The notes under the pieces are model-generated. The model was given only the letters and a program-made list of their open reading frames with translations. It searched no databases and was not told where the DNA came from. Positions 2,746-63,755 of a DNA stretch of 64,000 bases are shown piece by piece. The stretch spans positions 3,712,001 through 3,776,000 of the forward strand of contig OZ242005.1 in the NCBI GenBank assembly GCA_965204725.1. The letters are read 5' to 3'. How positions within the stretch are numbered: position 1 is the stretch's first letter; every line of letters begins with the position of its first letter. This DNA is from Candidatus Latescibacterota bacterium (GTDB lineage: Bacteria; Latescibacterota; UBA2968; UBA8231). The position numbers were made by a program, and so were the translations under genes.

Positions 2746-5100
2746 CTAATAGACGACGGAAACGACACCTGTGCGCGTGTCGCGGCCCGACTCGGCTCCT
2801 AGATCGAGGCGGTAGAGATACATGCCCGGCGCGACCAGAGTGCCCGACTCGTCGCGGCCCGTCCAAGTGAAGCGATGGCCCGTTGCGGTCGGCGTGGATT
2901 CGATCGCGGCAACTTGGCGGCCCGCTAGGTCGTAGAGCGCGAGCGTGGGAGTGGCCGCGGCTAGCTTGAAGACCACAAAGCGCATGTCGAGCGCGTCGTT
3001 GACGCCATCGCCGTTGGGCGTAATCGCGGGCGAGGCCAGTTCCAGCGCGTCGATGAGTTGGCCGCGTGCTGCGAGTTCGGGCAGCATTACTACTTGAGCA
3101 CGGCGCTCGGCTGGAACGACCGACTGCCAGAGGCCGGGCCGCTCGCTCAGCCCGAGGTCGAGGGAAAAAACCGTGGCGTTGTGCAAAACCCGCGTGGTAA
3201 AACCCACCCGAATTGAGTCCGCGGTCACAGTGCGCGGCAGGGCGACCAGCAGCGAGTCGCCGCGCTGGTCAACGCGGGCTGGCGCGACCGACTCGGGGCC
3301 AATGTGTAATTCGAGACCCTCAGCGTCAATCCGACCCGGCACAATAAAGCGCAACAGGTCGAAACCCGAGTCCCCAGCCGTCATCTGCGGCCAAAGCGTA
3401 TAGGTGAAACGAGTGTCCTCGTTGGGGACGGCTTGGCGCGGCTCAATGCGGCCGGCCGCGCCCTGCAACAGCGCGTCCTCAAACTCGACCGCGAGCGAAT
3501 GGACCACCGGCGCCACGCTGGGGTCCTCTGTGGAGAGAATCATCTCCAGCAGGATAAAGCGGCGCGGGCTTTCCGACAGGAATGCCTCGCCCGAGAACTG
3601 ATAGACGTTGCTCCATTCTCCCCAATCCTCGCCCACCACGAGGGTCGTATCGACGGGGCCGCGCAGCACCTTGGGCGAACTCTTCCACTTCTCCTCGGTG
3701 ACCTGTTCGCCGATCTTGTTGTAAAACGTATAGACCGGCTCTAGCGCATTGCCCGAGCGCGAACGCAGTTGCAGGCGGGTGCCCGCGGCTAGCTCGGCGT
3801 CCCAAGAGAGGTTTTTGATGACTTTCGGGCGGCCATCGCCCGCGAGTTGGCCCAAGTCCACGAAATCCGAGTGCAAGACAACTTCGGCGGGATAGCCCGG
3901 AGAGAACAGCATGAACTCGGCCCACTTGACGATACCCCAGCCGGTGTCGCGGATGCCGTGCCAGAAGAAGTAGCGCATCTTGCGCGGCTTGAACATGTAG
4001 CGAATGTAGAGCAGGCGGTCGGCGTTGGGATCGATGTGGGTCAGCAGCTCTGTGTAGTCAAACGCATCGGGCACGGGCAGGTTGGAACTGAGGCTGCGGG
4101 AGCCATCGGAGTAGAGCACTGTATGGCCCGGGCCAGTGCCATTGATCGAGAAGCCCACCAAGCCCTCGTCGGGCCGAAAGGAATAGAGAAAGAATTCATC
4201 GACGAAGAACACCGCCCCCAGATCCACTCCGAACCACACCCCACCCTCCTTCCAGCCGAGGCTGCCATAGGAAGAGCCGATTAGGTTGTTGGTGTTCATG
4301 TCGGCGTCGAAGAGGTTTTGCGGATCGACCGAATTGATCCCGTTGACAAAGCGCCCCCGCTGCATGGTGCCAATGCTGAGGTTGTCGCCGATGGCGCGGA
4401 CCTCGATTTCGGCCAAGGCCGCGCCCGGGGATTTCTCTTCGACCTCAATGCGGATGCGCTGGATCACCCTATAGTTGTTTTTGGTCTCCGGGTCGCCATC
4501 CAAGTCCGCGTCGAGCTGAAGGACGGTATCGCGGGCGGCGAACCCGAGGGGGATGACGATTTCGCTGGCTGCGTTGGGCTGGGTCGTGCGGAAGAGCGGG
4601 TCTAGCAGCACTAAGTCGTCTTGGACCGAGATGCGGGTCCCCGGGCTGCCGTACACGGTAAACTGGCGGAAGGGACGCACGTCCTCCGCGTCGGGAAAGA
4701 CGAGGCGGATCTCCCGGGCCAGCACGGCCCGGCCCAAGTCTATTTCAATGGCCCAGTCTTCGATGGCATCGGCTGGGTCTGGACGCCAGAAGGTCTGGAC
4801 ATCCCCGTCGATGATGTGGTCGGCATCGGCTGGATTGGAGGCCGCCTCCCAGATGCCGCCGGCAACGCGCCCGCGCCTCTTGCTTTCGTAGGAGAATCGA
4901 TGGGCATCAGCGACCGCGTTGATGTCCTTGCGGAACTTGACGAGTTGTAGCTGGCCGTTTTCGCCCACCTCGGTCAGGCCGAAGGGCGTCTGCCAAGTCG
5001 CCCAAGCATCTCGCCCTTGGAAGGTCAGGGTTTCGCTGTTAGCGGCCATGACGGCCAACGCGACGCAGACGAGCGGCAAAAGAAATCGCATCGTTCCCAC
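2746..5100 (-). CDS. Large secreted protein with discoidin-like beta-sandwich domains and a C-terminal FlgD-Ig/CHU_C-like domain
   Basis: Signal peptide; DGDVQTFW...IEIDLG discoidin-like motif; C-terminal ITPNGDGVND...YDLAGRQV...WTGRD...PGMYLY. Confidence 0.75.
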   Translation of the reverse strand: MGTMRFLLPLVCVALAVMAANSETLTFQGRDAWATWQTPFGLTEVGENGQLQLVKFRKDINAVADAHRFSYESKRRGRVAGGIWEAASNPADADHIIDGDVQTFWRPDPADAIEDWAIEIDLGRAVLAREIRLVFPDAEDVRPFRQFTVYGSPGTRISVQDDLVLLDPLFRTTQPNAASEIVIPLGFAARDTVLQLDADLDGDPETKNNYRVIQRIRIEVEEKSPGAALAEIEVRAIGDNLSIGTMQRGRFVNGINSVDPQNLFDADMNTNNLIGSSYGSLGWKEGGVWFGVDLGAVFFVDEFFLYSFRPDEGLVGFSINGTGPGHTVLYSDGSRSLSSNLPVPDAFDYTELLTHIDPNADRLLYIRYMFKPRKMRYFFWHGIRDTGWGIVKWAEFMLFSPGYPAEVVLHSDFVDLGQLAGDGRPKVIKNLSWDAELAAGTRLQLRSRSGNALEPVYTFYNKIGEQVTEEKWKSSPKVLRGPVDTTLVVGEDWGEWSNVYQFSGEAFLSESPRRFILLEMILSTEDPSVAPVVHSLAVEFEDALLQGAAGRIEPRQAVPNEDTRFTYTLWPQMTAGDSGFDLLRFIVPGRIDAEGLELHIGPESVAPARVDQRGDSLLVALPRTVTADSIRVGFTTRVLHNATVFSLDLGLSERPGLWQSVVPAERRAQVVMLPELAARGQLIDALELASPAITPNGDGVNDALDMRFVVFKLAAATPTLALYDLAGRQVAAIESTPTATGHRFTWTGRDESGTLVAPGMYLYRLDLGAESGRDTRTGVVSVVY

Positions 5101-5102
5101 CC

Positions 5103-7154
5103 TCAGTACGCGATGCCCAATGGGCGGAGCAAGGCGGCAGTGCGGAGCTCGGATTGCAGGGCTACGGAGAGTAAGTACACGCCCGGCGGCAGGGCTTGGC
5201 CTTCTGAGTCGCGTCCGTCCCAGCGCGCCATTTGCGGCCCGGCCGTTTGCAAGCCTTGGGGCACGGTCGCCATGCGGCGTCCGTCGAGCGCATAGACCAC
5301 CAATTCGATGGGCACTTGTTCCGGCAGGCCATAGAGGGCATAGGCCACGCGGAGCTCGTCGTGAACGCCGTCGCCATTGGGCGTCAACACGGGCGTTGAA
5401 AAGCGCAGGTTTTGCAGCAGGGCCGGTTGCTGATCCGAAAAACTGAGGACGCGCAGGCTATTGGTGGAGAGCATTTCGCTCGCGTCGCCCGCGACGATGG
5501 GTTGGGGCAAGGTCTCGGCCTGTGAATCGGTGACAGTGCCCAAGAACGTGGTGGCTAGTTCAAAAACCTCCGCTGCAAAGACGATGCGCAACGGCGCGTT
5601 GTTGGCGCGCGTGACGCGCTCCGGCAGGATCACCGTTAGCCCGTCGTCCTCCTCGCGGACGGTGGCTGGGTCGGCTGCTTGGCCGCTGACGAGCAGCTCT
5701 TTGAACGCGGGCCGGGCCCCGGTGTGGATATGCACTTGGTCGAAGCCGCGCTGATTCCCCCCTGAGAAGGAGGCCGACAGGTCGTACGCAAACTCGACCA
5801 TTTCGCCCAAGGCGACCTCCCCGAAGCCGAGCACGGGCTGCGGGTCGGCGAGCGGGGCCACTTCGCCGAGAACGCGCGCCGCCAACAGCGGTGCCCGCTC
5901 GACCCACAGCGAGTCCAAACGCACAAAATCCTCAAAGCGGGTGCTGTGAAAAGTGATGAATACTTGGATGAAGGAGCCGCTTTGGAGGTTGAGCGGCAGG
6001 CCCGACTGGGTCGTGGGCGTTGACCAGAAGGTCCAGTTATCGCTGTCGTAGGTGACTCCGGCGCGCATTCCGGGCCGGGGGCTGCGCTGGACGAAGTCGC
6101 AGGAGGCGCATGTGCGGGCGAACCCCGTGCGGAGGTCGGTCTCGTAGCGGGCGCGGGAGACGACCTTCTCCTTGCCGGTTACTGTGTATTCGTGATAAAT
6201 GTTCGGGTCGTCGTCGCGGCCCGTGCGAACCTCAACCTCGACGAAGGCCCGGGCATCGGGTGCTTCAACGGCCTCGCCAGCGACAACGCGCATTGGCGTG
6301 GCAGCAAAGAACAAGCGGCCAAAGTTTTGCTCGGCTCCGAGGTCGATGATCTTGGAGCGGTACGTAGCTCGCTTGGGAAAGCCCTTGCCATAGACCTCGA
6401 ACTCGCTGATGGTGCCCAAGAGCGAGCGGGCCTGATTGCCTTGGCCGCCGGCCGTGCCGCTAACGCGGGTCAGGGCCGTTTCGTCGATGATGGAAAATTT
6501 GCGGGCCCAGCGGAAGAAGCGCACGTATTGCTGGTCGAAACCAATATGCACGTCGGGCGCGAAGTTTTCGGTGGGCGCGGCGACGATCCGGGCGAGGGGC
6601 TGCGGCCCTTTGACGGCGAAAATCTCGCTGTTTTCCTCTTGGATTGAGACTTGGAAAGCCGGCGTCGAATCCGTGGGCAGCGGCGTACCGTCGGAGCGGA
6701 AGCCGCTCGAAGGGGTGTGGAAGCCGAAGGTGTGCGCCGGCATGGGCACGGCTAAGTCGATGGTGAAAAACTGCTTGTCAATGCCCTCGGCCTTGGAGGA
6801 GTTGTACGTGGTGCTGTCTGCATCGATGAGGGCGACGCCGTTTTCGGTGGGGTCGCCGTTGCCCTCGTTCCACTTCCAGATTCGGGGGCGCTCGCCGTCG
6901 ATATAGCCCAGCTCTTTGGGCTGGCGAAAGGTCGTCCAGTTATCGAGCAGGGAAATGATGTTGACGCCCGGCTCGACGCGCACCGGCTGGATGGCACCTG
7001 GGACGCGCTCAAAGTCGATCATAATGCTGACCGTGTCTTGGCCGGCCCAAGGCTGGCTGCCGCCGAGTTGCCAAGTCGTCACCTCAGCTTTTAGGGCTAT
7101 GGGTGCCAGAAGCCCGATACTAACGGCAAGCCCGAAGCTGCGAATGCTCGGCAT
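5103..7154 (-). CDS. Large secreted protein with C-terminal FlgD-Ig/CHU_C-like domain (paralogue of 2746..5100)
   Basis: Signal peptide; SEFEVYGKGFP...SKIIDLG; C-terminal LTPNGDGVHD...WDGRD...PGVYLL. Confidence 0.75.
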   Translation of the reverse strand: MPSIRSFGLAVSIGLLAPIALKAEVTTWQLGGSQPWAGQDTVSIMIDFERVPGAIQPVRVEPGVNIISLLDNWTTFRQPKELGYIDGERPRIWKWNEGNGDPTENGVALIDADSTTYNSSKAEGIDKQFFTIDLAVPMPAHTFGFHTPSSGFRSDGTPLPTDSTPAFQVSIQEENSEIFAVKGPQPLARIVAAPTENFAPDVHIGFDQQYVRFFRWARKFSIIDETALTRVSGTAGGQGNQARSLLGTISEFEVYGKGFPKRATYRSKIIDLGAEQNFGRLFFAATPMRVVAGEAVEAPDARAFVEVEVRTGRDDDPNIYHEYTVTGKEKVVSRARYETDLRTGFARTCASCDFVQRSPRPGMRAGVTYDSDNWTFWSTPTTQSGLPLNLQSGSFIQVFITFHSTRFEDFVRLDSLWVERAPLLAARVLGEVAPLADPQPVLGFGEVALGEMVEFAYDLSASFSGGNQRGFDQVHIHTGARPAFKELLVSGQAADPATVREEDDGLTVILPERVTRANNAPLRIVFAAEVFELATTFLGTVTDSQAETLPQPIVAGDASEMLSTNSLRVLSFSDQQPALLQNLRFSTPVLTPNGDGVHDELRVAYALYGLPEQVPIELVVYALDGRRMATVPQGLQTAGPQMARWDGRDSEGQALPPGVYLLSVALQSELRTAALLRPLGIAY

Positions 7155-7164
7155 GTCGTGTCTC

Positions 7165-7905
7165 CTAGCGGAAATGAGCGTCGGCCGCGTGGGCTACCCC
7201 CGGGCCGTGTTGCATCCTCATTAGCTGGCGCTGACGTGTGCTCAAGCCGTCCCACCACTCAGGCGGGAAGCCGTCGTGCGGGTCGAGCTGAAAGACCAGC
7301 ATGTGCTTTCTGTAGTGGCCGAAGAGGGCGTGGCGGTTATGGCTGCCGGTGTTGGCGCCGCCGCCGTGCCAGCACTGGCCGTTAAAGACAAGGACCGAGC
7401 CGGCCGGGGCTGTCGGCTGGACCTCGTGCTGGACGGCAAATCCCTCTGGGGGCGCGGCGAGGCCGCTCTTGTGCGAGCCGGGCACCACGCGGGTGCCGCC
7501 GATCACGGGGCTGAAGTCGTCGAGCATCCACACCGTGTTCATCATCACCGGCGTGTCCATGTTGAGCATATAGACAGGGATGTCGCTGTGTAGGTCTTGG
7601 AAGCCGTCGCCGGGGCGAACGATACGCGAGTTGAGGCTGCCCAAAATCAGCGAGGGCTCGAGAAAGTGTTCGAGAATCGGCAAGACGCGGGGGTGGTCAA
7701 TGCACTGGTGGAAGATGCGATCCATGACCGGGAGATTGGCTACGTGGCGGGCCGAGCCGCGGTGCGTGTGTTCGGTGCCGTGCTCTTGTTCACAGCGGAT
7801 CAAGGCTTGACGCATGGCAGCGGCCGTGTCGGGGTCGAGGACGCTTTCGAGCAAGGTGAAGCCGTAGAGTTCGATTTCTTGGATGGCTTGTTCGAGTTCG
7901 TTCAT
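7165..7905 (-). CDS. Phytanoyl-CoA dioxygenase (PhyH) family 2OG-Fe(II) oxygenase
   Basis: LHSD HxD motif, GGTRVVPGSH, WHGGGAN...R. Confidence 0.9.
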   Translation of the reverse strand: MNELEQAIQEIELYGFTLLESVLDPDTAAAMRQALIRCEQEHGTEHTHRGSARHVANLPVMDRIFHQCIDHPRVLPILEHFLEPSLILGSLNSRIVRPGDGFQDLHSDIPVYMLNMDTPVMMNTVWMLDDFSPVIGGTRVVPGSHKSGLAAPPEGFAVQHEVQPTAPAGSVLVFNGQCWHGGGANTGSHNRHALFGHYRKHMLVFQLDPHDGFPPEWWDGLSTRQRQLMRMQHGPGVAHAADAHFR

Positions 7906-41436: not shown

Positions 41437-42280
41437 GAAGCTATCTCATAAATACCGTAGCAGTATGAGGATGCATCCGAGTTGTACAAAGCCGAGGTAG
41501 TTTTCAGCATAGTATTCGTATCGAACCACGATGCGGCGGAAGTTATGCAACCAAGCAAACAGTCTTTCTATTTTCCAGCGTCTTTTGTAGCCCCGCAACC
41601 GCCGCCCGTCCTGGGTTTTGGCCTGCGTACGATTGCGGCGATGCGGCGCGATCATCTCAATGCCTTGGTCGGCCAGGCTCGCATCCAATCGATCCGAGTC
41701 GTAGGCTCGGTCCCCGATGAGTCGTTGCGGTCGGGGCTGGACCCATCGGTTTTCCAGGGTGGCTTCTACGAGGGTGACTTCGTGCGGCGAAGCACTTTGG
41801 ATGAGTACGGCGATAGGAAGACCAGCGCGGTCTGCCACTGCCATGAGCTTCGTACCTTTGCCCCGCTTGGTCGGACCCACTTGGTCCCCCCTTTTTTCGC
41901 CGCGACAAACAGGCCATCGATGAAGCATTCGCTCACATCAAGGCCCCCGCGCTCATGCAAGTCGTGCGCGAGGGTGCGCAGAATATGTTCAAAGGTGCCA
42001 TCAGACGACCACTGTTGGAATCGACGATGGCAGGTCTGGTAGGACGGATAGCGAGCAGGCAGGTCATGCCCAGGCGCCCCGGTGCGGAGAATCCACAGAA
42101 TACCATTGAGCACCGCTCGGTTACAACGCCACGGACGACCCCGGCCATCGCGGCGTTTGGGACACGCCGGCAGCAGTGGGGACACTATCGACCACTGTTC
42201 GTCTGTAAGATCCATAAGAGATACCTCCGAAAGGGAATACCACTAACGTAGCACAGCCAGACTATTTATGAGATAGCTTC
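41437..42280 (-). mobile_element. IS5 family insertion sequence (IS427-like group)
   Basis: Perfect 18-bp TIRs gaagctatctcataaata (41437-41454 and 42263-42280) enclosing a split transposase. Confidence 0.93.
41446..42215 (-). CDS. IS5 transposase, two ORFs joined by a probable programmed -1 frameshift
   Basis: OrfA LTDEQW...RTGAP.HDLP...HRRFQQW; OrfB GDRAYDS...[11 protein letters not shown]; A6G6 slippery site at 41886-41897. Confidence 0.92.
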
Positions 42281-43207: not shown

Positions 43208-43813
43208 ATGCAACATTATCCTCTTGACCTCAGCCAATACTTAAATAATGACGGCATCTCTTTCGAGATCGATGTAGAAGATGGCGACTTCGATGGATTA
43301 GGTAACACCTATCCGGCTGAAAAACTACCGGACTCAAAGCAGCTCACCACCCTGTATGGGACTCCGATGCTATTTCCCGACAAATGCGACGGTGCCTTTA
43401 ATAATATCGTCCTCGAAGCCCAGCAGATTGTGGTACCTTCTGGGCACTATTCCACGTTGGCAGTTATCGGAGCTTCGGACTCTGGACGCTATGTGAACGG
43501 CGGTTATCAAGACCTGCTCGTCTTCTCGTATCGGGACGCTGAGGAATGCGCGACATTGAGATTGAAAGACTGGATATGTATAGAGGAGCAGCGGTCAGGA
43601 GGACGCGAAGCACTGCGCTGTCCCTATATGCACGGCCCTACCGGTCGCTGCGCGTTGTCTGAGCGAGGATATGAGACCTATCCGACCCTTTGGTACGAGG
43701 AAATCGAGATAGACGAGTCAAAAACGCTGGAACGCATCCAGCTACCGGACAACCCCTGTATGCACATCTTTTCAATGACCTTGATGGCGCGAAGATGTTC
43801 TCGAAAGGAATAA
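43208..43813 (+). CDS. Hypothetical beta-sandwich protein
   Basis: DLSQYLNNDGIS..GDFDGLGNTYP...L..IQLPDNPCMHIFSMTL; resembles accessory domains of some glycoside hydrolases (from memory). Confidence 0.6.
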   Translation: MQHYPLDLSQYLNNDGISFEIDVEDGDFDGLGNTYPAEKLPDSKQLTTLYGTPMLFPDKCDGAFNNIVLEAQQIVVPSGHYSTLAVIGASDSGRYVNGGYQDLLVFSYRDAEECATLRLKDWICIEEQRSGGREALRCPYMHGPTGRCALSERGYETYPTLWYEEIEIDESKTLERIQLPDNPCMHIFSMTLMARRCSRKE

Positions 43814-43814
43814 C

Positions 43815-44813
43815 ATGAAGCGACGAGCTACGTTATACCATTTAGATCGGCGGCCGATGTACTACGGCTGCGCGGGCACGACCATGGCTGCACTCCAATA
43901 CTATAATCCCGTATTGGCTGATCCGCTAGCGTACTACGCCTCTCTGCTGAGTTGGACTTTTTTCTTTGATAAAGATCGGGGTATGCCCCTCAAAATTCCG
44001 GCAAGCCAGCTCATGCAGCGGAATTTGCAGCACTTGTACGGAATTATCCAAGATGAAATCCGCGAGGACCGTTTTGACGACTTATGGCTAGCGATTGAAA
44101 GCCTGTTGGTACAAGGGCGCGTCGTCGTCGTATGGGTTGACGCCAACCATATCAACGACAACGCGTTCCATTATAACCGAGTTTCCGGGGAAGTTGAACT
44201 CATGGTCATTTGCGATTGCGACCACAGCAACGACACATTGGAGATCATCGTCAATCCTCAGCGTTTCCATGGCTCCATACCGCTTTCGTGCCTTTCAGAC
44301 ATCTTAATGTTCAATCTTGCCTATGATTATCGAGTGCCCGAACGTTTGGTCCCGTGGCCTGCAAGCCAAGGCAAACAGCTTTTGCAAGCAGACGTATTGG
44401 GAATGCTGCACGGAGGCACTAGGGGAATGGTAGAAACAGGCTTCTCCGCGATCCGTTTGTTCATAGAAGAAATGAAATCGCACACTGGTTCCAGCGATGA
44501 TGTACTGCGTCCGTGGATGCACGAAGCATTTAAGCAGTTGGCCTTTACCGGGCCGCAACGCACGGTCTTCGGCCAGACGCTCGAACGACTCGCCGATCTA
44601 CATTGTGTCCCCAAGCTGGAGACCATCGCCCAGCGTTTTCTTGCTATCGCCCAGAGTTGGGAGGTCGCCCGCAATATGTTCTTCAAAGGCTGTAAGCGAG
44701 CACCAGCCGCCATGTTGCCGCGTATTCTCAAACGAGTTGAAGCACTGCTTATCGAGGAGCAAGAACAGGCCTACATGATCCAAACGTGGCTGCAAAAATC
44801 CCCGAACCAATGA
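43815..44813 (+). CDS. BtrH-like (papain-like fold) protein
   Basis: N-terminal GC..T...L, VVVWVD, C-terminal R..F...L...F..IA..W helical region; adjacent to an ACP as in butirosin-type clusters. Confidence 0.6.
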   Translation: MKRRATLYHLDRRPMYYGCAGTTMAALQYYNPVLADPLAYYASLLSWTFFFDKDRGMPLKIPASQLMQRNLQHLYGIIQDEIREDRFDDLWLAIESLLVQGRVVVVWVDANHINDNAFHYNRVSGEVELMVICDCDHSNDTLEIIVNPQRFHGSIPLSCLSDILMFNLAYDYRVPERLVPWPASQGKQLLQADVLGMLHGGTRGMVETGFSAIRLFIEEMKSHTGSSDDVLRPWMHEAFKQLAFTGPQRTVFGQTLERLADLHCVPKLETIAQRFLAIAQSWEVARNMFFKGCKRAPAAMLPRILKRVEALLIEEQEQAYMIQTWLQKSPNQ

Positions 44814-50296: not shown

Positions 50297-53200
50297 ATGC
50301 TAAGCTCATCAACTGATCCCCTTGAAATACTCGCGGACGCGCTTGAGGAGAAGCGGCCGCTGGTGTTGTTCGCAGGCCAGAGTCTCGACTCGGCCCATGA
50401 TGCCATACTTGGTGCCCTCCTCGATCGCTTTGGATGCACAGATCGCAATTCGGGATGGTGCGTAGCCCTCAAGCAGGGCATAAGTGTGGACGATATGGCG
50501 TGGCTTTCTGAACGGTTTGAACGAAGTGTTCCCTCTGCCGCCGCCGCCGCTATCTTCGATGTCGCATGGAGTGCGGTGTTCACTTCATCTATAGATCCCC
50601 GGTTTGCGAGGCGTTTCGAGACCAGAGGGCGGCAGCCCGAATCCGTGCTTTCCAAAGACACCTACTCGAAGGTGCCGCGTAGCCGCTCAAGGCCGCCGAT
50701 CCACTATCTCTTTGGAAAATCCAATGAAACCGTTGAGTATGCGCGAGCACCCGGAAACCAAATTGATCTGACGCGCCGCCTTAGCCTACACGCGACGGAA
50801 TTGCTGAACCGCATTGCGGAAACCGCGACAGTGCATGGCTTGGTGGTCATAGCGGGCTACGACCCAAGCAAAGATTGGATGCAACTGGACTCGTTATTGG
50901 CCCCGCTATCTGTCCCCGTCGGCCCCAAGGTTCTATTGTTGGGCTGTCCCGGCAAACTGGACTCGATCTTCGCTGACGAAATGATCCAGCGCGGTTCGCT
51001 CACTGTGACCGAAACGACCCTTGCAAGCGCGATAAGCCAACTCGAACTCCGCGGTGTGCTCGACATTGCGGGATCCGCTGCCCCAGATAATCCGGGCATG
51101 GTGTCGCTTTCCGAGGAAACGGCACTGGACATCACGCCTGCCCTGCGGCTCCGAGTGGAAGCGTCGGCAGCTATTGTCGATGACGGATGGACGGAAGAGA
51201 TCGAACCCTTAGGCGACTTAGAACGATACGACGCATTCCGCCGCTTTCACAGTACGCTCGGTAACTTCAGATTGCTGGTGGAGGGAATATCGCGTGGATT
51301 TGCAGTAGAACGCGAGTTCGAGCAAACCCTTTGGAGGACAGTGAACGACGAGTTCGAGCGATTCGGGCAAGCTGATTCCGACAATGTGGTTATTCTGCAT
51401 GGGCAGTCGGGCACTGGAAAGAGCATCGCACTCGCACGGCTGGCTTGGAAGATTCGTCGCAAACTGCACCTGCCCGTTGTGGTCGCGACGAATCGGATAC
51501 CGAATCCCACAGACATCGAAGCATTCTGCTTGGAGGCCGAACGCTTGGGAGCGAAAGCGACGGTCTTGGTCTGCGACGCCAGCCAACCCCCACAACGCTA
51601 CGACGATTTGGCCTCTGCGCTGCGAAGTATGGGGCGCCGATTGCTCATCGTGGGCACTTGTTATCGGATGGAGGATCAAAATGGCGGCGCGTTGAATCGA
51701 CATGTCGAGTCCCCCGCCAGCGTTTCACAGGGCGAATTATCCGCGTTTGAGGAACTGTTGAACAAATTCGACCATCCCTCAACAAGCTACTACACTCAAC
51801 TCACCACTGACTCGATCTTTGCCATGCTATACCGCAGTTTGCCTTCCTCACGCGAACGCCTCACCACAGGCGTGTCATCGGAAGCGAGGGCTACCGAAAG
51901 TGTGGTACGGGATCGGGCAAGGTATGCGCCGCGGTCATCTACTGGGCTATCTCTCTTAGCGGAGCAGTTGATTAAGTCGGGCATTGCTAGTCCAACTTCG
52001 CCGTTGTTTGAGGAGGATGAAAAGCTCGCGGCTTTGGGCTTGGACGAAGCAGGACGATTGGTTGACTATGTGATGGTAGCTGGTCGGCTGGACTGTGCAG
52101 TGCCCGTTAATCTTATTTTTCGTCTGCTCGGTCAGGCAGGTGGTCTGCATCTGGATCAAATCACCTATCTCCTCGCCGACCTCGATCTGTTCCGTTGGAT
52201 AGATGACCAAGAAGGAGCGGATTTTCTGATTTCGCCACGCATACAGCTCGAGGCAGAGCTTATATGTAGGCGAAGGCTTACTCCCGAGCAGGAAATCGAC
52301 CGCCTGCTCGATCTAATCGGCAGCGTCAGATTTGGATTGGATCAAAGTGCCGAGCGTTCGTTCTTGCTCAACTTGCTGTTCATGATTCGGAATGGACCGC
52401 GCAAAGAGGCGTACCGCTCTGGTTACCTTCGGTTTGCCGACGCGCTCAAGCAGTTGCGGGAGCAGAATAGAATATCCGATCCAGACCTCGTCTTGCCCGA
52501 GTGCGTGTTCCGACGAAGAGCGGTCTCCCGGTCACAAAGCGATTACGATGCAGATAGAACTGACGACGAGCGATTGGCTATTCTGGATGAGGCTCGCGAT
52601 ACAGTCGAAAAGACGCTCCGCCAGATTGACGACGGGAAGATTTTAGTGTCCAGAAAAACAAAACAAAGCCTAATTGCAGAACGCTCGGCGATATACGGAT
52701 ACCTTGCAATTGAGCGTGCTCGATCCAGTGGCAGCGAGGACTTTTGGTCGGACTATCTCGCTGCAAGGACAGCAAGCGAGAAAGCTATTGGGCTTGGCAG
52801 AAATACCCATCCCATTGACATCGCCCTTTGGACAGCGAGCGATGTGCTCAAACTAAAAAAGGACGAAATGTCCGATGCACAACATGCGGAAGTTTTAGCC
52901 GACCTGCACGCAACCATTGATGTTGCCGATGAAGTCTTCAGGGTGAAGGGACAAAAGACAGGGATGTCGAGCGATTTACCAGAATACAGTGACCCGGACG
53001 AGGGGTTAGCCGCTTTAGATCAAAAAACGAAGTATCTCTATCGTCGAAGCCGTGTTGCAGACGTTATGGGCGACGCGAAACTGAGCGATGAGACACTTGC
53101 CGAGTTGGAAAATATCGCGCCCGCGGCAGCAACCTTCCTCATCGCAAAGCGGCAGGCGGAGCAGGTGTATATGGGCGAGCCGCCTTTCGACTACAAGATT

Positions 53201-53791
53201 CGCGGAATCGCAGCAAAAGCGGCGGACTACATATCCCGCCGCGTCAATAAAGGAATTGTGCTGGATGACCGCTGCCAACGGCTCTTGCTCAGGTTGCGGT
53301 GGGCACAGGCAACGGGCGAGCGTCTGATGTTCAATCAGCGTAGCCGTACGCCCGTGGACACGGACCTGATTTTTGAGTTGCGTAAAATCGTAAATGTTCT
53401 CAACGAACAAGCCGGGGCCGACGCCCGCAACCGGGAGCGGTTTCTCGAAGCAGTGTTATGCTGGCTGCTCAAGGATACGAACCGCGCCATCGAGATATGG
53501 CGGGCGCTGTCGCGTGATACAGAATACGAAGATCGAGCACGAGTAGTTCGGTGGCTCGTAGCGACGGACGAGAACGGTTCCCCGCGTCAATTTCGCGGGC
53601 GCGTCGAAGCGGGAAGGGAGAACAACTGGCAAGTGCGAGTAGAGGGTGTTGAAAGGCCCATCTCATTGCTAGCGCGCGATTTCCCAAACGCTGAGCTCGC
53701 CCATGGTCGAGAACTGAGAGAGTTTGGCATCGCCTTCAACTATATTGGCCCCATTGCCGATCCGCTCTCCCACCCGAGGCGCGGACGATGA
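50297..53791 (+). CDS. SIR2-like + STAND P-loop NTPase + helical/TPR-like + OB-fold protein (SAMD9/Avs-like), putative defence sensor
   Basis: LVLFAGQS / WSAVFTSSID / IHYLFG / VIAGY (degenerate SIR2); GQSGTGKS Walker A (about 51401); VLVCD Walker B; C-terminal FGIAFNYIGPIAD. Confidence 0.75.
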   Translation: MLSSSTDPLEILADALEEKRPLVLFAGQSLDSAHDAILGALLDRFGCTDRNSGWCVALKQGISVDDMAWLSERFERSVPSAAAAAIFDVAWSAVFTSSIDPRFARRFETRGRQPESVLSKDTYSKVPRSRSRPPIHYLFGKSNETVEYARAPGNQIDLTRRLSLHATELLNRIAETATVHGLVVIAGYDPSKDWMQLDSLLAPLSVPVGPKVLLLGCPGKLDSIFADEMIQRGSLTVTETTLASAISQLELRGVLDIAGSAAPDNPGMVSLSEETALDITPALRLRVEASAAIVDDGWTEEIEPLGDLERYDAFRRFHSTLGNFRLLVEGISRGFAVEREFEQTLWRTVNDEFERFGQADSDNVVILHGQSGTGKSIALARLAWKIRRKLHLPVVVATNRIPNPTDIEAFCLEAERLGAKATVLVCDASQPPQRYDDLASALRSMGRRLLIVGTCYRMEDQNGGALNRHVESPASVSQGELSAFEELLNKFDHPSTSYYTQLTTDSIFAMLYRSLPSSRERLTTGVSSEARATESVVRDRARYAPRSSTGLSLLAEQLIKSGIASPTSPLFEEDEKLAALGLDEAGRLVDYVMVAGRLDCAVPVNLIFRLLGQAGGLHLDQITYLLADLDLFRWIDDQEGADFLISPRIQLEAELICRRRLTPEQEIDRLLDLIGSVRFGLDQSAERSFLLNLLFMIRNGPRKEAYRSGYLRFADALKQLREQNRISDPDLVLPECVFRRRAVSRSQSDYDADRTDDERLAILDEARDTVEKTLRQIDDGKILVSRKTKQSLIAERSAIYGYLAIERARSSGSEDFWSDYLAARTASEKAIGLGRNTHPIDIALWTASDVLKLKKDEMSDAQHAEVLADLHATIDVADEVFRVKGQKTGMSSDLPEYSDPDEGLAALDQKTKYLYRRSRVADVMGDAKLSDETLAELENIAPAAATFLIAKRQAEQVYMGEPPFDYKIRGIAAKAADYISRRVNKGIVLDDRCQRLLLRLRWAQATGERLMFNQRSRTPVDTDLIFELRKIVNVLNEQAGADARNRERFLEAVLCWLLKDTNRAIEIWRALSRDTEYEDRARVVRWLVATDENGSPRQFRGRVEAGRENNWQVRVEGVERPISLLARDFPNAELAHGRELREFGIAFNYIGPIADPLSHPRRGR

Positions 53792-54687
53792 CGCCGATCG
53801 ATCTCAGCAACCTGTATCAAACACTTCGCACTCGTGTCTCTATCCACTGCCCGAACAGTTGTGCCGAAATCTCCCTGCGGTTGCCATCCAACTTCGGCGA
53901 TGAGTTGGCGTTCTATCGGCTGGTCAATTGGGGCTATGTTCTCGTCCAAGAGTCAGCAAAAATTCCGCTTGCCTTTCTCACCAACCTGCCGCCCCTGAAG
54001 GCGGACAATTCGTTCCGAAAGGAAGTTTCTCGCCTGCGAACCTATGTGGCCCACAATCTCGATACAAAAAGCACGAGAGATCAGAAAACGTATGCCTTCG
54101 TTCATCGTTGGTTCAAGGAGGCGTGTGGGCGCGGAACTCCAGACAGCGTCGCCCATTACGGGGATTGCTGTGCTTACCTTGCTAGCAGGCTTCAAGAAGT
54201 GCTCAATGGCGCGATTGAAGCATGCGACCTGCTCGACGCCCCAGAGGATGGGCCAAGGCTCGTTGCCGATCTCAAGGGCCGCATTGACCTCGTTTGGGAG
54301 GCGCATCGCTTCGATCCAATAGTTGCAAAGTGTGCCGCTCGGTTGGGCAATCCGGGGCTCGATCTGCTGGCGATCCGATCAAGGCACCTTGAGAAGTGGC
54401 GCGATGTGTTGGCCCAAGCCGACGAGAACGAACGCGAGCGCGTCCTCGAACAGCGAATTGAATCCGATCTACTGCAAGCCATCGGCGACGCCCTGCCGCT
54501 AATCATACGTGAAAACTTGCAACGGGTTGCGGCGAACATCCATGCGACCGTCGCCGCATTGCTCTTGTTGCGCGAGGCCCGACGCATTGGTGCTATGACA
54601 CTGCCGCAGATTATTGAGTTTGTAAGCCGGCAAGTCTTGGGGCGGGATAATTCCCAAGGCGACGCGGAGCTTGTTGATGCTCGCTGA
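53788..54687 (+). CDS. Hypothetical helical protein with an Rx4H (HEPN-like) motif
   Basis: ATGA overlap with the NTPase gene; LRTYVAHN at about 54034-54057. Confidence 0.55.
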   Translation: MTPIDLSNLYQTLRTRVSIHCPNSCAEISLRLPSNFGDELAFYRLVNWGYVLVQESAKIPLAFLTNLPPLKADNSFRKEVSRLRTYVAHNLDTKSTRDQKTYAFVHRWFKEACGRGTPDSVAHYGDCCAYLASRLQEVLNGAIEACDLLDAPEDGPRLVADLKGRIDLVWEAHRFDPIVAKCAARLGNPGLDLLAIRSRHLEKWRDVLAQADENERERVLEQRIESDLLQAIGDALPLIIRENLQRVAANIHATVAALLLLREARRIGAMTLPQIIEFVSRQVLGRDNSQGDAELVDAR

Positions 54688-54784: not shown

Positions 54785-54973
54785 GTACACTTTTTCGCAC
54801 TTTTAGATGTACATACAAGTATGTGCTTTTCTCGGGATTCGCCGAACTAGCGTATTATTAGTGAGTTATACGTTAGCAGGTTCCACGCGCTCGCAGGTTC
54901 ATGGAGAAATCCTACAATTATGAGCCAACTAAACCGTCGGCTAGAGTACTTAATTTAGTACCATATAAGGTAC
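54785..54973 (+). promoter_or_regulatory. AT-rich promoter region with GTAC boxes at 12-bp spacing (probable Phd/YefM operator)
   Basis: GTAC at 54946, 54958, 54970; GTAC/GCAC/GTAC at 54785, 54797, 54809. Confidence 0.55.
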
Positions 54974-54985
54974 AAAAGAGGAAAT

Positions 54986-55243
54986 ATGATCCAATCCATG
55001 CCCATTGCCGAAGCTCGCAAAGTCCTGAATCAACTACCCGATCGCTTCGTCGCCGAACCCGAAGCAAGTGCTCTCGCCGTAACGCGCCGCGGTCAGCCGG
55101 TACTCGCGCTGATGCCGTGGTCGCTTTATCAGGGCATTGTCGAAACCTTAGAGGTACTCGGGGACGAGGCCCAGTGTGCTGCGTTGCGCGAAGGCATCCG
55201 CCAGATTGAGGCGGGCGAGCGCACCGTTTGGGAGGTGCAGTAA
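54986..55243 (+). CDS. Phd/YefM family antitoxin
   Basis: MPIAEARKVL...VTRRGQPVLALMP...YQGIVETLEVL. Confidence 0.9.
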   Translation: MIQSMPIAEARKVLNQLPDRFVAEPEASALAVTRRGQPVLALMPWSLYQGIVETLEVLGDEAQCAALREGIRQIEAGERTVWEVQ

Positions 55244-55274
55244 GCCACCGCCCGCTGAAGGGAGGAGTTGTGCT

Positions 55275-55592
55275 ATGAGATTCCGCGTCGTCTTGGCGCA
55301 GTGCGCCTTAGAGTCGCTGCAAGGTCTGCTCAACCGGCGGATTGCCGAGCAGGTTGACCAATACATCACAGGGCTAGCCAGCGATCCCGAGGAACAGGGC
55401 TGGCCCTTGGTCGGCGAGTTAAAGGGCTATCGCTGCCTGCGTCCGCCGGGAGGCTGGTTCCGCATTGTCTATCGGATAGGGCTGGGTGAGGTCGAGGTGG
55501 TACTGGTGTCGGTAGGGCAGAGCCATTCGGCAGGCGAGCGAGACGTGCGCACCTTGGCGCGGACGCTATTTAGCGAGCGGTTGCTGCGCTAA
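55275..55592 (+). CDS. RelE/ParE family toxin
   Basis: ggagg RBS; LASDPEEQGWPLVGELKGYRCLR...FRIVY...VSVG. Confidence 0.85.
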   Translation: MRFRVVLAQCALESLQGLLNRRIAEQVDQYITGLASDPEEQGWPLVGELKGYRCLRPPGGWFRIVYRIGLGEVEVVLVSVGQSHSAGERDVRTLARTLFSERLLR

Positions 55593-61445: not shown

Positions 61446-63755
61446 TCAGTAGCTCAAACCGATGCTGCGGATTAGGGTGCGGGTGAGCGAGTCGCCAGCG
61501 ACCCGCAAGCGGAGGAGGTAGAGGCCGGGCCGGGCCATAGCACCGGAGTTTCGGCGGCCGTCCCACGTTAGCTGGTAGTGGCCGGCCACGCCGCTGGCGT
61601 CTCGCAGAGTGCGGACGAGGCGACCGCGCAGGTCAAAGATGCGGGCGTCAATCGGGCGGGCGTCGATGACCTTGAGCACGTCAAAAGAGATGACGAGCGC
61701 GTCGTTTATGCCGTCGCCGTTGGGCGTAAAAATCCCGTTGCCGATGTCGAGGTGGGCGAGCAGGCCCTCGTTGATGGGCAGAGCAACGACATCGCCGCTG
61801 CCCGCTAGATCCGGGACGGCGTCGCCCGGGTCAACCTGCTGACGCAGGGTATCAGGCCCGCTTACGCGCTCTAAGAAAGCGCGAAAGCGGGTATTGTTTT
61901 GAAACACGGTAGCGGCGAAACCCAGCTCCACGCGCTCGGCCACGGCGACCGGTGCGGGCAAGTGCAAGCGGAAGCCCGCATCCGTCTTTTTTATCTCGGC
62001 GTTGACTGACGCGCCGTCGATTTGCAGGGCGCGGAACGCGAGGGGAACCGAGGCTTCGAGGGCGATCGCGGCAAAGCCTTGACTGTCGCGGGCGAATTCT
62101 GGGCGGAGGAAGTACGTGAAGTCGGTTTGCTCCCCCGGCTCCACGCGCGTCGGGTGGACTTCGCCTACGGCGGTACGGGCCAAAGGACGGGAGTAGTTCA
62201 AGATAAGCGCGTCGAGGGCAATGCCGGCCTGCGGATTGTCGGCGTGCAGTTCGGCTTCGAGTTGCACGTAGCGCCGGGGCGAAGGCGAGCGGAAGCGGGT
62301 GCCGGCTTGGATGTACTCCTCGCTCCACACGCTCCAGCCATCGCCCGGTTGAAGCGTGGTTTCGATGGGGCCGCGGAACGAGGCGATCAGCTTTTCGTAA
62401 CGCCTTTTGGACACCTCTTTGCCGTTTTTGTCAAAGTAGCGCATCTCCTCAACGACGTGGTCGCCGGTGCGGCTACGCAAGGCGAATTGAGCACCGAGCG
62501 GCGCGTCAATTTCCCAGTCAATCGCAGTAATGTTCCAATTGGTGCCGAGGTCGATAACGGGCGAGCGAAGGACGACGCGGGCCGGGTATCCCTCACCGTA
62601 AACTTGGAACTCACTGACTAGACCCAATCCGTCCAAGCGGCCGGTGTTGTCGAAAGCGTTGCCCGACAGGCCGCCGCCGATGATGTAGCCGCCTTGGCTC
62701 GTGGGATAGATCAAACGCAGATAGCGGGCGGCGATTAGGGGGACATCGTGGCGAAAATTGCGGACATCGAAGAGGTTGCGGGGGTCGAGGGGAATGGAGG
62801 CCAATGCCTGCCAAGCCAGCGAACCGTCGGGGGCCAGCGAGCCATCGGAGTACTGCATCTGATAGGCGAGGAAGTTGGCGTAGGACTGCCGCAGCCGTGG
62901 CGGAATGCCCAACGGCTCACCCAAGAGCCAGACCGAATCGATCCAATAGGTCGCTCCCAGATCAATGCGGTAGTCGCCGAAGGTCTCGCTGCCGCCGCTG
63001 GAGCCTTTGGCGAGGGGGTTGACGCGCCACATGGTCGAAACATTGCCGTCGAACATGACGGAAGGGATGCCGGCCACGGCGACAATGGCCGCTTCAACAT
63101 CAACGGTGCCGCCTTTGGCAATCAAGTCAAAGGCGATATTGTCGCCAAAGGCCCTGACTTGGATTTCGGCAAGCGCGGGTGCCCCAGCCACTTCGCGCGT
63201 GGCCTCGATGCGGAGAACTTGAACGAATTCGTCGTCGAGGTCGATCGTCACATCATGCGCCTCGTTGAAGGCGAAGTGCCTGCTGTGGCTGTAGATTAGG
63301 GTCCCTTCGACGACGACATTGGCACTGTTGATAAAGCGCTCGCCCTTGGAGAGTGAAACATTAAAAAAGGGCAGGGGCGGCGCACCGGGGGCGAAGCGCA
63401 AGCGAATCTGCTGGACCGGAAAGACTTGTCCCAAGTCGATCTCGATCCACCAGTCCTTTGGGGCCGTGCCCGGAGGTGGATTCCAGCTTGTGGCAAGGTC
63501 GCCGTCAAAGGCTTGGGCAGCAGTAGATTGTGCCGCTCCGACCCCGCGAATGGCAGCCTCGGAGAGCGGGTCAATGCCCTTGCCGATTCGCACTGGCCGC
63601 ACCGAGCCTGCTTCGTCTAGGCGCAGGGCACCGGGGGGATAGACCCAGTGTTCCCATATATCCTCCGAGGTCATAACTAGGCGCTCGGCACGCATGGGGC
63701 TGCTGAACGGCACGATCATGCACAGTGCTAAGGGCAAGAGGCGGAATGGCGACAA
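61446..63755 (-). CDS. Large secreted protein with discoidin-like domains and a C-terminal FlgD-Ig/CHU_C-like domain (third paralogue)
   Basis: Signal peptide; AFDGDLATSW...IEIDLG; SEFQVYGEGYP..SPVIDLG; FTPNGDGIND...WDGR...PGLYLL. Confidence 0.75.
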   Translation of the reverse strand: MSPFRLLPLALCMIVPFSSPMRAERLVMTSEDIWEHWVYPPGALRLDEAGSVRPVRIGKGIDPLSEAAIRGVGAAQSTAAQAFDGDLATSWNPPPGTAPKDWWIEIDLGQVFPVQQIRLRFAPGAPPLPFFNVSLSKGERFINSANVVVEGTLIYSHSRHFAFNEAHDVTIDLDDEFVQVLRIEATREVAGAPALAEIQVRAFGDNIAFDLIAKGGTVDVEAAIVAVAGIPSVMFDGNVSTMWRVNPLAKGSSGGSETFGDYRIDLGATYWIDSVWLLGEPLGIPPRLRQSYANFLAYQMQYSDGSLAPDGSLAWQALASIPLDPRNLFDVRNFRHDVPLIAARYLRLIYPTSQGGYIIGGGLSGNAFDNTGRLDGLGLVSEFQVYGEGYPARVVLRSPVIDLGTNWNITAIDWEIDAPLGAQFALRSRTGDHVVEEMRYFDKNGKEVSKRRYEKLIASFRGPIETTLQPGDGWSVWSEEYIQAGTRFRSPSPRRYVQLEAELHADNPQAGIALDALILNYSRPLARTAVGEVHPTRVEPGEQTDFTYFLRPEFARDSQGFAAIALEASVPLAFRALQIDGASVNAEIKKTDAGFRLHLPAPVAVAERVELGFAATVFQNNTRFRAFLERVSGPDTLRQQVDPGDAVPDLAGSGDVVALPINEGLLAHLDIGNGIFTPNGDGINDALVISFDVLKVIDARPIDARIFDLRGRLVRTLRDASGVAGHYQLTWDGRRNSGAMARPGLYLLRLRVAGDSLTRTLIRSIGLSY

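Follow-up and report, generated by a model that had tools for sequence, protein, structure and literature searches.

A SAMD9-like bacterial STAND protein with a SIR2-like domain stripped of its catalytic residues is strictly paired with a small all-helical partner in a possible two-gene defence module

The human genes SAMD9 and SAMD9L have roles in antiviral defence and in disease, and bacterial proteins of the SAMD9 family were described in 2017 by Mekhedov et al., who defined the family by BLAST sequence similarity and reported that some members have lost the AlbA_2 domain. In 2025 Legrand et al. presented the antiviral STAND (Avs) proteins Avs5, 'Avs6' and 'Avs9' as structural analogues of SAMD9, with convergence argued for the AlbA_2 fusion, and the similarity between Avs5 and SAMD9 was noted again in 2026. 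Because of these three reports a bacterial SAMD9-like architecture is already known. Cryo-electron microscopy studies of SAMD9 and SAMD9L report that activation depends on SIR2/SIR2 and OB/SIR2 contacts and assign the effector role to the AlbA tRNase; they consider NAD binding by the SIR2-like domain unlikely. This domain is now regarded as a scaffold and not as an enzyme. Here we describe a two-gene cassette in a 64,000-nucleotide stretch of a Candidatus Latescibacterota bacterium genome (contig OZ242005.1; hereafter the window). A large STAND protein with the domain order of SAMD9, whose SIR2-like domain lacks the catalytic residues throughout its family, is encoded directly upstream of a small partner of no known family.

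The features of the cassette, all on the + strand, are listed below with the amino acid (aa) numbers of the encoded protein and, in brackets, the basis of each assignment.

50297..53791, + strand: large gene, STAND protein of 1164 aa (open reading frame and translation, homologues, AlphaFold2 model, PDB matches)
50297..51064, + strand: SIR2-like domain, aa 1-256, alpha/beta, without catalytic Asn and His (fold match to ThsA, KomC and DSR2; column counts)
51065..51313, + strand: linker, aa 257-339, three short strands and helices (DSSP of the model)
51314..52276, + strand: STAND NTPase, aa 340-660 (Pfam PF25199 nSTAND_NTPase5; conserved Walker residues)
52283..53545, + strand: helical-repeat (TPR-like) region, aa 663-1083, about 420 residues (model; TPR structural matches)
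53582..53767, + strand: C-terminal OB-like barrel, aa 1096-1157 (model strands; conserved C-terminal motif)
53788..54687, + strand: partner gene, 299 aa, all-helical, no known family (open reading frame; downstream homologue across loci)
54037..54054, + strand: partner R84-x4-H89, candidate active site together with E39 and E55 (invariant columns of a 37-sequence alignment)

The large gene begins with ATG and the translation of 50297..53791 has no internal stops. A first-pass annotation, made from the DNA letters alone, had proposed this reading frame and quoted a series of motifs from it, and we found all of them in the translation: AGQS at aa 26-29, TSSID at aa 96-100, LFG at aa 138-140, VVILHGQSGTGKSIALARLAWKIR at aa 364-387 and FGIAFNYIGPIAD at aa 1143-1155. 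Searched exhaustively with HMMER, 1.84 billion cluster representatives yielded 582 homologous ones at E<=1e-3, of which 438 were at <=1e-10 and 265 at <=1e-30. They come from many phyla, and many are collinear with the large protein along the full ~1140 aa at 25-61% identity, thus the frame is not a chance one. A decaying pseudogene was ruled out, since nothing interrupts the frame and the invariant residues persist from phylum to phylum. In other loci (L004, L025, L034, L040, L041, L050 and L063) the large gene is broken into two or three open reading frames; these could be pseudogenes or assembly errors, several of them being long-read assemblies of metagenome-assembled genomes (MAGs).

We built an AlphaFold2 model of the large protein from a 77-sequence alignment. 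The model is confident (mean predicted local distance difference test score, pLDDT, 89.2; predicted template modelling score 0.72) and consists, in order, of a SIR2-like domain, a linker, a STAND NTPase, helical repeats and a C-terminal five-stranded OB-like barrel. When the model was searched against the PDB with Foldseek, chains of human SAMD9 filled the best six rows (E 3.7e-18 to 2.3e-17). After these came EfAvs5 (E 1.5e-13), PaAvs5 and, further down, DSR2, ThsA, Avs3/4 and KomC. Structural alignment with VIA matched SAMD9 (9zjs_A) at Z 17.1 over 778 residues, pairing model residues 3-1160 with SAMD9 389-1588; EfAvs5 at Z 14.4 over 740 residues (model 4-931, target 18-844); and BcThsA at Z 17.1 and a root-mean-square deviation (rmsd) of 3.4 Å over 230 residues (model 6-256, target 8-281). 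The comparison with SAMD9 and Avs structures that the first-pass annotation had proposed therefore placed SAMD9 first and Avs5 second. The rmsd of the SAMD9 alignment is 31.6 Å, which means a collinear domain order and no rigid-body fit. This alignment extends to SAMD9 residue 1588 of 1589. Since the EfAvs5 alignment ends at model residue 931, the last ~230 residues, including the barrel, are matched in SAMD9 and unmatched in Avs5.

Sequence profiles gave no such match. SAMD9 was absent from the best 60 of the 97 matches (E<=10) of the full-length profile and from the three matches of the C-terminal profile, in a searched set that possibly lacks the SAMD9 entries of 2026. The likeness to SAMD9 thus appears confined to fold and domain order, and of the resemblance proposed by the first-pass annotation the structural part stands while the sequence likeness was not reproduced. 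That annotation also saw a bearing on the origin of a human antiviral architecture. The link itself has been published, by authors who argue for convergence, and the claim about origin is not supported as worded.

The NTPase carries the one Pfam domain above cut-off in the large protein, PF25199 nSTAND_NTPase5, at aa 331-455 (35.6 bits against a gathering cut-off of 34 bits, E 9.9e-9). The same domain was found in 40 of 41 homologues at E<=0.01 and in 21 of 41 above the cut-off. Walker A (GQSGTGKS) lies at aa 369-376, the Walker B Asp is D427 and a winged-helix hairpin lies at about aa 632-647; G369, G374 and D427 are present in 77 of the 77 aligned sequences and K375 in 75. The Pfam scan of the large protein found no SIR2, TPR, OB or AlbA_2 match, and nSTAND3 reached 13 bits against its 27.2-bit cut-off. 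The linker sits, in the model, where SAMD9 has its 'Delta' domain, a correspondence of position only. The repeat region, presumed to be the sensor arm, is all-helical in the model and matches TPR proteins such as LGN (3ro2, Z 12.8 in VIA).

An OB-fold tail had been predicted, and the last ~65 residues are indeed modelled with high confidence as five strands (1099-1105, 1110-1115, 1122-1125, 1139-1147 and 1152-1156; pLDDT mostly 81-95). A short helical turn separates strands 3 and 4, giving the arrangement the topology of an OB fold. The OB assignment, a putative one, draws on this topology, on the SAMD9 alignment reaching the SAMD9 C-terminus and on a non-significant profile match to the OB region of archaeal proteasome-activating nucleotidase (E 0.7). 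The strongest C-terminal motif, F-x-I-A-F-N-[YF]-x-G-P-I-A-[DE]-P, spans strands 4-5, with F1147 in 77 of 77 sequences, N1148 in 71 and G1151 in 74.

The first-pass annotation had described the N-terminal domain as SIR2-like with decayed motifs. We found that model residues 3-256 match ThsA, KomC and DSR2 at Z 16-17 and rmsd 3.4-4.2 Å in VIA, in agreement with the first part of that description. In the 77-member alignment the column of the canonical Asn (TxNxD) holds Ala in 36 members, Ser in 34, Thr in four and Asn, His and Met in one each, and the window protein has S98. At the canonical His (HG) we found Phe in 63 members, Tyr in eight, Met and Cys in two each and Leu and His in one each, the window protein having F139. 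None of the 77 has both canonical residues. ThsA and DSR2 require both. The decay is therefore a trait of the whole family and not of the window gene alone.

The register of these motifs is secure, because the hidden Markov model (HMM) of the family aligns motif by motif (E 8.7e-20) with L094, a relative with an intact SIR2 domain: GAGAA of L094 pairs with LGQ of the family, TTNYD with TS[AS]ID, KLHG with LFG and GYSFAD with GYxxxxDW. A weak profile match to SeThsA repeats the pairing of TSSID with TTNYD. The Pfam model SIR2_2 (PF13289) did not match the large protein at E<=1 and matched three of 41 homologues, all below its cut-off. In PaAvs5 the N110A mutant, which lacks the catalytic Asn, is reported to be inactive, and NG in place of HG is reported to leave the protein functional. 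Loss of the His alone is thus weak evidence; the loss of both Asn and His is, at the level of sequence, strong evidence against NADase activity in the family. The domain is nevertheless under strong constraint, with G27, R112, G181 and D193 in 77 of 77 members, Q28, R128 and W194 nearly invariant and G187 kept in 69 of 77. This suggests that it is functional, though not canonically.

The partner gene, which the first-pass annotation lacked, changes the mechanistic reading. Its start overlaps the stop of the large gene by four bases, an arrangement of translational coupling; the overlap is seen in 39 of 58 loci, the remaining loci mostly lying within eight bases. By tblastn, 60 of 62 related genome loci have a partner homologue directly behind the large gene; L041 and L059, which lack it, are both cut by contig ends. 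The partner HMM found it in all five viral-contig loci. When neighbouring open reading frames were clustered, the large gene and the partner were the only conserved element, and the flanks vary beyond the closest relatives. The identities of the two proteins to their window copies correlate (Spearman 0.94, n = 54, a value inflated by relatedness), as expected for co-inherited genes. The partner HMM had no match in seven 12-kb loci of other nSTAND5 proteins of the phylum, two of them with an intact SIR2 domain, and did match the one family locus in that set.

The partner model has 13 helices and a pLDDT of 84.8. The window copy had no Pfam, NCBIfam or PADLOC match and 37 members had none in Pfam or PADLOC; all 176 partner homologues are named 'hypothetical protein'. 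Foldseek found no PDB row at E<=0.001 and, among viral structures (BFVD), a best E of 0.17. Across the 37 partners, at 21-82% identity, E39, F42, W48, E55, L83, R84, H89, W108, P118, W204 and P237 are invariant. The two Glu, the Arg and the His form a candidate active site, and since they are invariant the partner is probably an enzyme, possibly one that acts on RNA or tRNA.

HEPN RNases are defined by an Rx4-6H motif. R84-x4-H89 fits this pattern in 37 of 37 partners, and a protein-atlas search gave a HEPN pointer at 0.75, a level graded 'often chance'. We treat HEPN identity, which rests on this motif and this atlas row, as a lead and not a finding. No HEPN chain was among the 50 best VIA rows of the partner, and PF18869, used as a HEPN test, was silent on the window genome and likewise in all 14 control genomes. 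Near the C-terminus, 30-50 residues of 11 of the 37 partners match tRNA_NucTran2_2 below threshold (best 22.6 bits against a 27-bit cut-off), and the family profile weakly matches the tail of the human CCA-adding enzyme (E 0.077). These hints leave an RNA-directed effector a tentative possibility. Complex prediction for the partner with two parts of the large protein, the SIR2-like domain plus linker (aa 1-335) and the C-terminal arm (aa 815-1164), gave scores of 0.00, 0.63 and 0.00, which are uninformative on binding either way.

Four metagenome proteins of 907-911 aa on different contigs (P0273-P0276) are in-frame deletion fusions of large-protein residues 1-765 to partner residues 144-299, the junction being a short stretch of similarity (LDEA.D / IEACD). 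Missing from them are the repeat/OB arm and the partner half with the four invariant residues (Glu, Glu, Arg and His). They are possibly decayed or rewired forms of the pair.

The closest loci to the window are in Latescibacterota MAGs at 77-90% identity; further ones are in Binatia, Gemmatimonadota, Spirochaetia, Alpha-, Beta- and Gammaproteobacteria, Chloroflexota, Acidobacteriota, Myxococcota, Chlorobium and others. Within the phylum the cassette is present in 12 of 168 genomes, namely six of the 31 of the window's genus and six in one genus of another family. It is that other family which has the copies closest to the window's (85, 83 and 81%), against 77-80% for the copies of the own genus, which indicates transfer. 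In the window the cassette is flanked by a DUF1611 gene and a gene for an alginate-export-type porin, 5.6 kb apart. In two cassette-free genus mates the same flanks are 1.3 kb (G133) and 2.6 kb (G130) apart, and the cassette is thus an insertion, or its absence a deletion, relative to them. The G+C content of the cassette region is 51-57% against ~66% just upstream, and repeats around it were limited to short matches of chance size.

We scanned 143 neighbours in 41 of the 62 loci, a set that leaves out the close Latescibacterota relatives. Transposase, integrase, resolvase or TniQ genes were present in at least eight of the 41 loci, and restriction-modification, toxin-antitoxin, Schlafen/AlbA_2, STAND, DUF499 or similar conflict-type genes in at least eight further loci; the remaining neighbours are housekeeping or unannotated. 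The surroundings of tail-fibre genes are a typical site of prophage accessory cargo. On one viral contig (L109) the cassette is closely followed by two homologues of lambdoid-type tail fibres, with 60% identity to the tail fibre of phage HK544. This prophage-borne copy had no match in complete E. coli genomes in either near or distant search mode.

Taken together, these observations are consistent with a model in which the two genes form one mobile Avs-like defence module, the large protein being the sensor and switch and the partner the output. We give this model an even chance. Sensing of a ligand from the invader would fall to the arm of helical repeats and OB-like barrel, and the nSTAND5 NTPase would drive nucleotide-dependent opening and oligomerisation. 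The SIR2-like domain, no longer hydrolysing NAD+, would serve as an assembly platform, as proposed for SAMD9 and SAMD9L. Output would have shifted to the small partner encoded in the same operon, which would be gathered or released as the large protein assembles. The platform and the output role of the partner are suggested by analogy, because of the precedent of the SAMD9 and SAMD9L cryo-electron microscopy. In SAMD9 the OB loop 1557-1569 (of 1589 residues) is reported to dock on SIR2. The motif F-x-I-A-F-N-[YF]-x-G-P, likewise near the chain end, may by this comparison be an intra- or intermolecular docking element and not a nucleic-acid site of the kind that the first-pass annotation suggested for the OB fold. 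A more doubtful extension of the model makes the partner the founder of a new class of immune effectors without known fold, an enzyme directed at RNA or tRNA that would bind the dead-SIR2 platform and be switched on by its oligomerisation.

Several results weigh against this defence model. The window is not a defence island, the cassette having metabolic and outer-membrane genes as neighbours. In another genome of the genus (G135, locus L105) the same flanks are 13.1 kb apart with nitrate-assimilation genes between them (a NirB-like reductase, a molybdopterin oxidoreductase and a nitrate ABC transporter), so that the site is a general variable region and not a dedicated defence hotspot. No copy was found at E<=1e-10 in 72,556 plasmids or 50,697 phage records. 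PADLOC recognised none of 38 large proteins, bar one weak row for the mad8 P-loop, and none of 37 partners; for the window protein it gave a PbeC P-loop match (E 0.006) and no Avs model. The partner shows no recognisable nuclease or other effector fold among 48,161 chains (best Z 6.1 in VIA, the background of helical bundles), none of the 37 partners matches a HEPN Pfam family, and the motif resembling the CCA-enzyme tail is degenerate in the window partner and its clade. Finally, the SIR2-like domain may still bind a nucleotide, as its invariant Gly, Gln, Arg and Asp and its helical sub-domain are kept.

This last point leads to an alternative in which the domain binds NAD+, ADP-ribose or a signalling nucleotide, or carries out non-canonical chemistry with Q28, R112, R128 and D193, and the partner is a regulator such as an inhibitor, chaperone or specificity factor. 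The retention of Rossmann-type elements (G27, G187 and D193) and of R112 and R128, the alignment over 230 residues with the full ThsA SIR2 domain, helical insert included, and the reported activity of the NG variant of PaAvs5, by which motif variation alone is no proof of inactivity, all agree with it. We consider it unlikely, given that not one of 77 members keeps both catalytic residues and that the Asn is reported to be essential in PaAvs5. Moreover, the relatives with an intact SIR2 domain have no partner in either of two loci, which fits replacement of the output and not regulation of a retained one. It is also conceivable that the partner stands on the sensor side, as a guarded host-like protein or a decoy on the repeat/OB arm, and that the large protein kills through a host factor or by oligomer-dependent sequestration. 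Extra proteins have been reported in other Avs complexes, for example EF-Tu in that of Avs7, and this explanation would accommodate a partner that matches no effector fold. We judge it very unlikely, as the four invariant charged or polar residues shared by distant partners resemble an active site more than a decoy surface, and evidence for another effector was nil.

A role outside conflict would be housekeeping signal transduction, with the large protein as a MalT/AfsR-type STAND regulator and the partner as a small protein that binds DNA or RNA polymerase to control expression. Signal transduction is the role that Mekhedov et al. suggested for the SAMD9 homologues of bacteria, metabolic genes neighbour the cassette both in the window and in several other loci, and partner residues 169-245 gave weak VIA rows to sigma-factor domains (Z 5.0-5.6). 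These rows are at background level, however, and no DNA-binding Pfam domain was found in the large protein or the partners. The patchy presence in the phylum and genus, the insertion or deletion relative to genus mates, flanks that vary across phyla and the association with mobile and conflict genes and a prophage tail-fibre region also speak against such a role, which we regard as quite unlikely.

Further features of the window lie on either side of the cassette.

41446-41928, - strand: open reading frame of 160 aa about 8 kb upstream of the cassette, with a DDE_Tnp_1 transposase match (E 1.8e-17); likely a truncated insertion-sequence remnant
43208-44813, + strand: open reading frames of 201 and 332 aa, stop and start one base apart, without Pfam match and low in G+C (51-52% against ~66% nearby); may be another acquired module
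54901-55592, + strand: small overlapping open reading frames (102 and 138 aa) without Pfam match, in the ~1 kb between the partner and porin genes
61446-63755, - strand: protein of 769 aa with F5/8 type C, FlgD_ig and CHU_C (type IX secretion sorting) domains, which suggests that the organism uses an export signal of the type IX secretion system

We compared the cassette with other nSTAND5 proteins of the phylum, which differ at their N-termini: an intact SIR2 domain in L094 (genome G055) and L096 (G145), Schlafen/AlbA_2 in L095, and an unassigned N-terminus next to restriction-modification genes in L097 and L098. Such swappable N-termini are the modular pattern of antiviral STAND proteins, which ties nSTAND5 to the SAMD9-like bacterial group. 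L094, a protein of 1031 aa from another genome of the phylum with SIR2_2, nSTAND5 and TPR matches in Pfam, and L096 share with the large protein a homologous SIR2 domain, linker and NTPase as well as helical repeats. In contrast to it they keep GAG, TTNYD and KLHG, match SIR2_2 (5e-25 and 1.8e-14, respectively) and the ThsA models of PADLOC, are ~100 aa shorter and have no partner gene inside their 12-kb loci. L095 lies in a cassette-free genome of the window's genus (G130, open reading frame 4134-7829) and encodes 1231 aa with SLFN_AlbA_2 at aa 21-160, nSTAND5 and helical repeats, the layout published as 'Avs9' or SAMD9-like. Its NTPase region alone aligns with the large protein, and weakly (hhalign E 2.8e-4, probability 41%).

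The Avs9 protein of P. fluorescens (A0A7T4VS34), which Legrand et al. presented in 2025, is likewise a SAMD9-like bacterial STAND protein. Avs9 and L095 have a fused N-terminal Schlafen/AlbA_2 nuclease as effector whereas the large protein starts with its SIR2-like domain, and we rejected membership of Avs9 as neither Pfam nor the model contains an AlbA_2 nuclease. Thoeris ThsA, DSR2 and KomC share the SIR2 fold of aa 1-256; they are NAD+-degrading effectors, unlike the large protein with its missing Asn and His. Avs5 (EfAvs5 9jap, PaAvs5 9nc9) is closer, with an N-terminal SIR2 fold, a STAND NTPase and a helical-repeat sensor. It is described as a single gene with an active NADase and, for PaAvs5, the Pfam domain nSTAND3. 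The large protein differs in its dead SIR2 motifs, its nSTAND5 domain, its ~230 extra C-terminal residues with the OB-like barrel and its obligatory partner. Membership of Avs5 was also rejected, there being no competent SIR2 domain (S98, F139), an nSTAND3 score below cut-off and no Avs match in PADLOC.

The family may already have been touched upon. The table of 238 Foldseek hits of Legrand et al. includes a protein of Rhodovulum marinum, and locus L021 of this species holds a family member, which may be the protein of the table entry. We found no description of a two-gene nSTAND5 system with a dead SIR2 domain in a literature search that mostly did not extend to subscription papers; the supplementary clade tables of PMC12803255 (198 defence-associated STAND clades) may list it. 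What appears to be new, judging from this search, is the combination of a family-wide dead SIR2 domain, no fused effector and a strictly linked partner without recognised fold. If the cassette is a defence system, the antiviral STAND repertoire gains a two-gene type, an effector domain can evidently be retired to structural duty as another effector is taken on in trans, and a small, genetically tractable setup for SIR2-scaffold signalling becomes available. Otherwise, the partner family and the strict pairing still call for explanation.

SAMD9 and SAMD9L (PDB 9zjr, 9zjs) remain the closest comparison. The core order of the SAMD9 family of Mekhedov et al., a SIR2-like domain of a variant kind, then a STAND P-loop NTPase and helical repeats, is present in the large protein by model and structural alignment, beginning with the SIR2-like domain at residue ~3 and without AlbA_2. 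The human and bacterial proteins run alike from a SIR2-like domain through a linker, a STAND NTPase and helical repeats to a C-terminal OB domain, which in the large protein is a putative one; SAMD9 is the best whole-chain structural match, and in both the SIR2-like domain is non-catalytic, with a scaffold role proposed for SAMD9. The large protein differs in having neither the SAM domain nor the AlbA_2 tRNase. Its SIR2-like domain seems to retain the helical sub-domain, whereas SAMD9 is reported to lack the NAD lid. A widespread bacterial family thus shares the SAMD9 domain order and the loss of SIR2 catalysis, and its output is presumably split off into a separate protein. If the partner is indeed a new effector, the cassette would be a bacterial 'in trans' version of the SAMD9 design, a scaffold SIR2 domain with a tRNase, and a tractable model of activation by a non-catalytic SIR2-like domain. 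By analogy, the cassette most likely works like SAMD9 with its effector supplied in trans.

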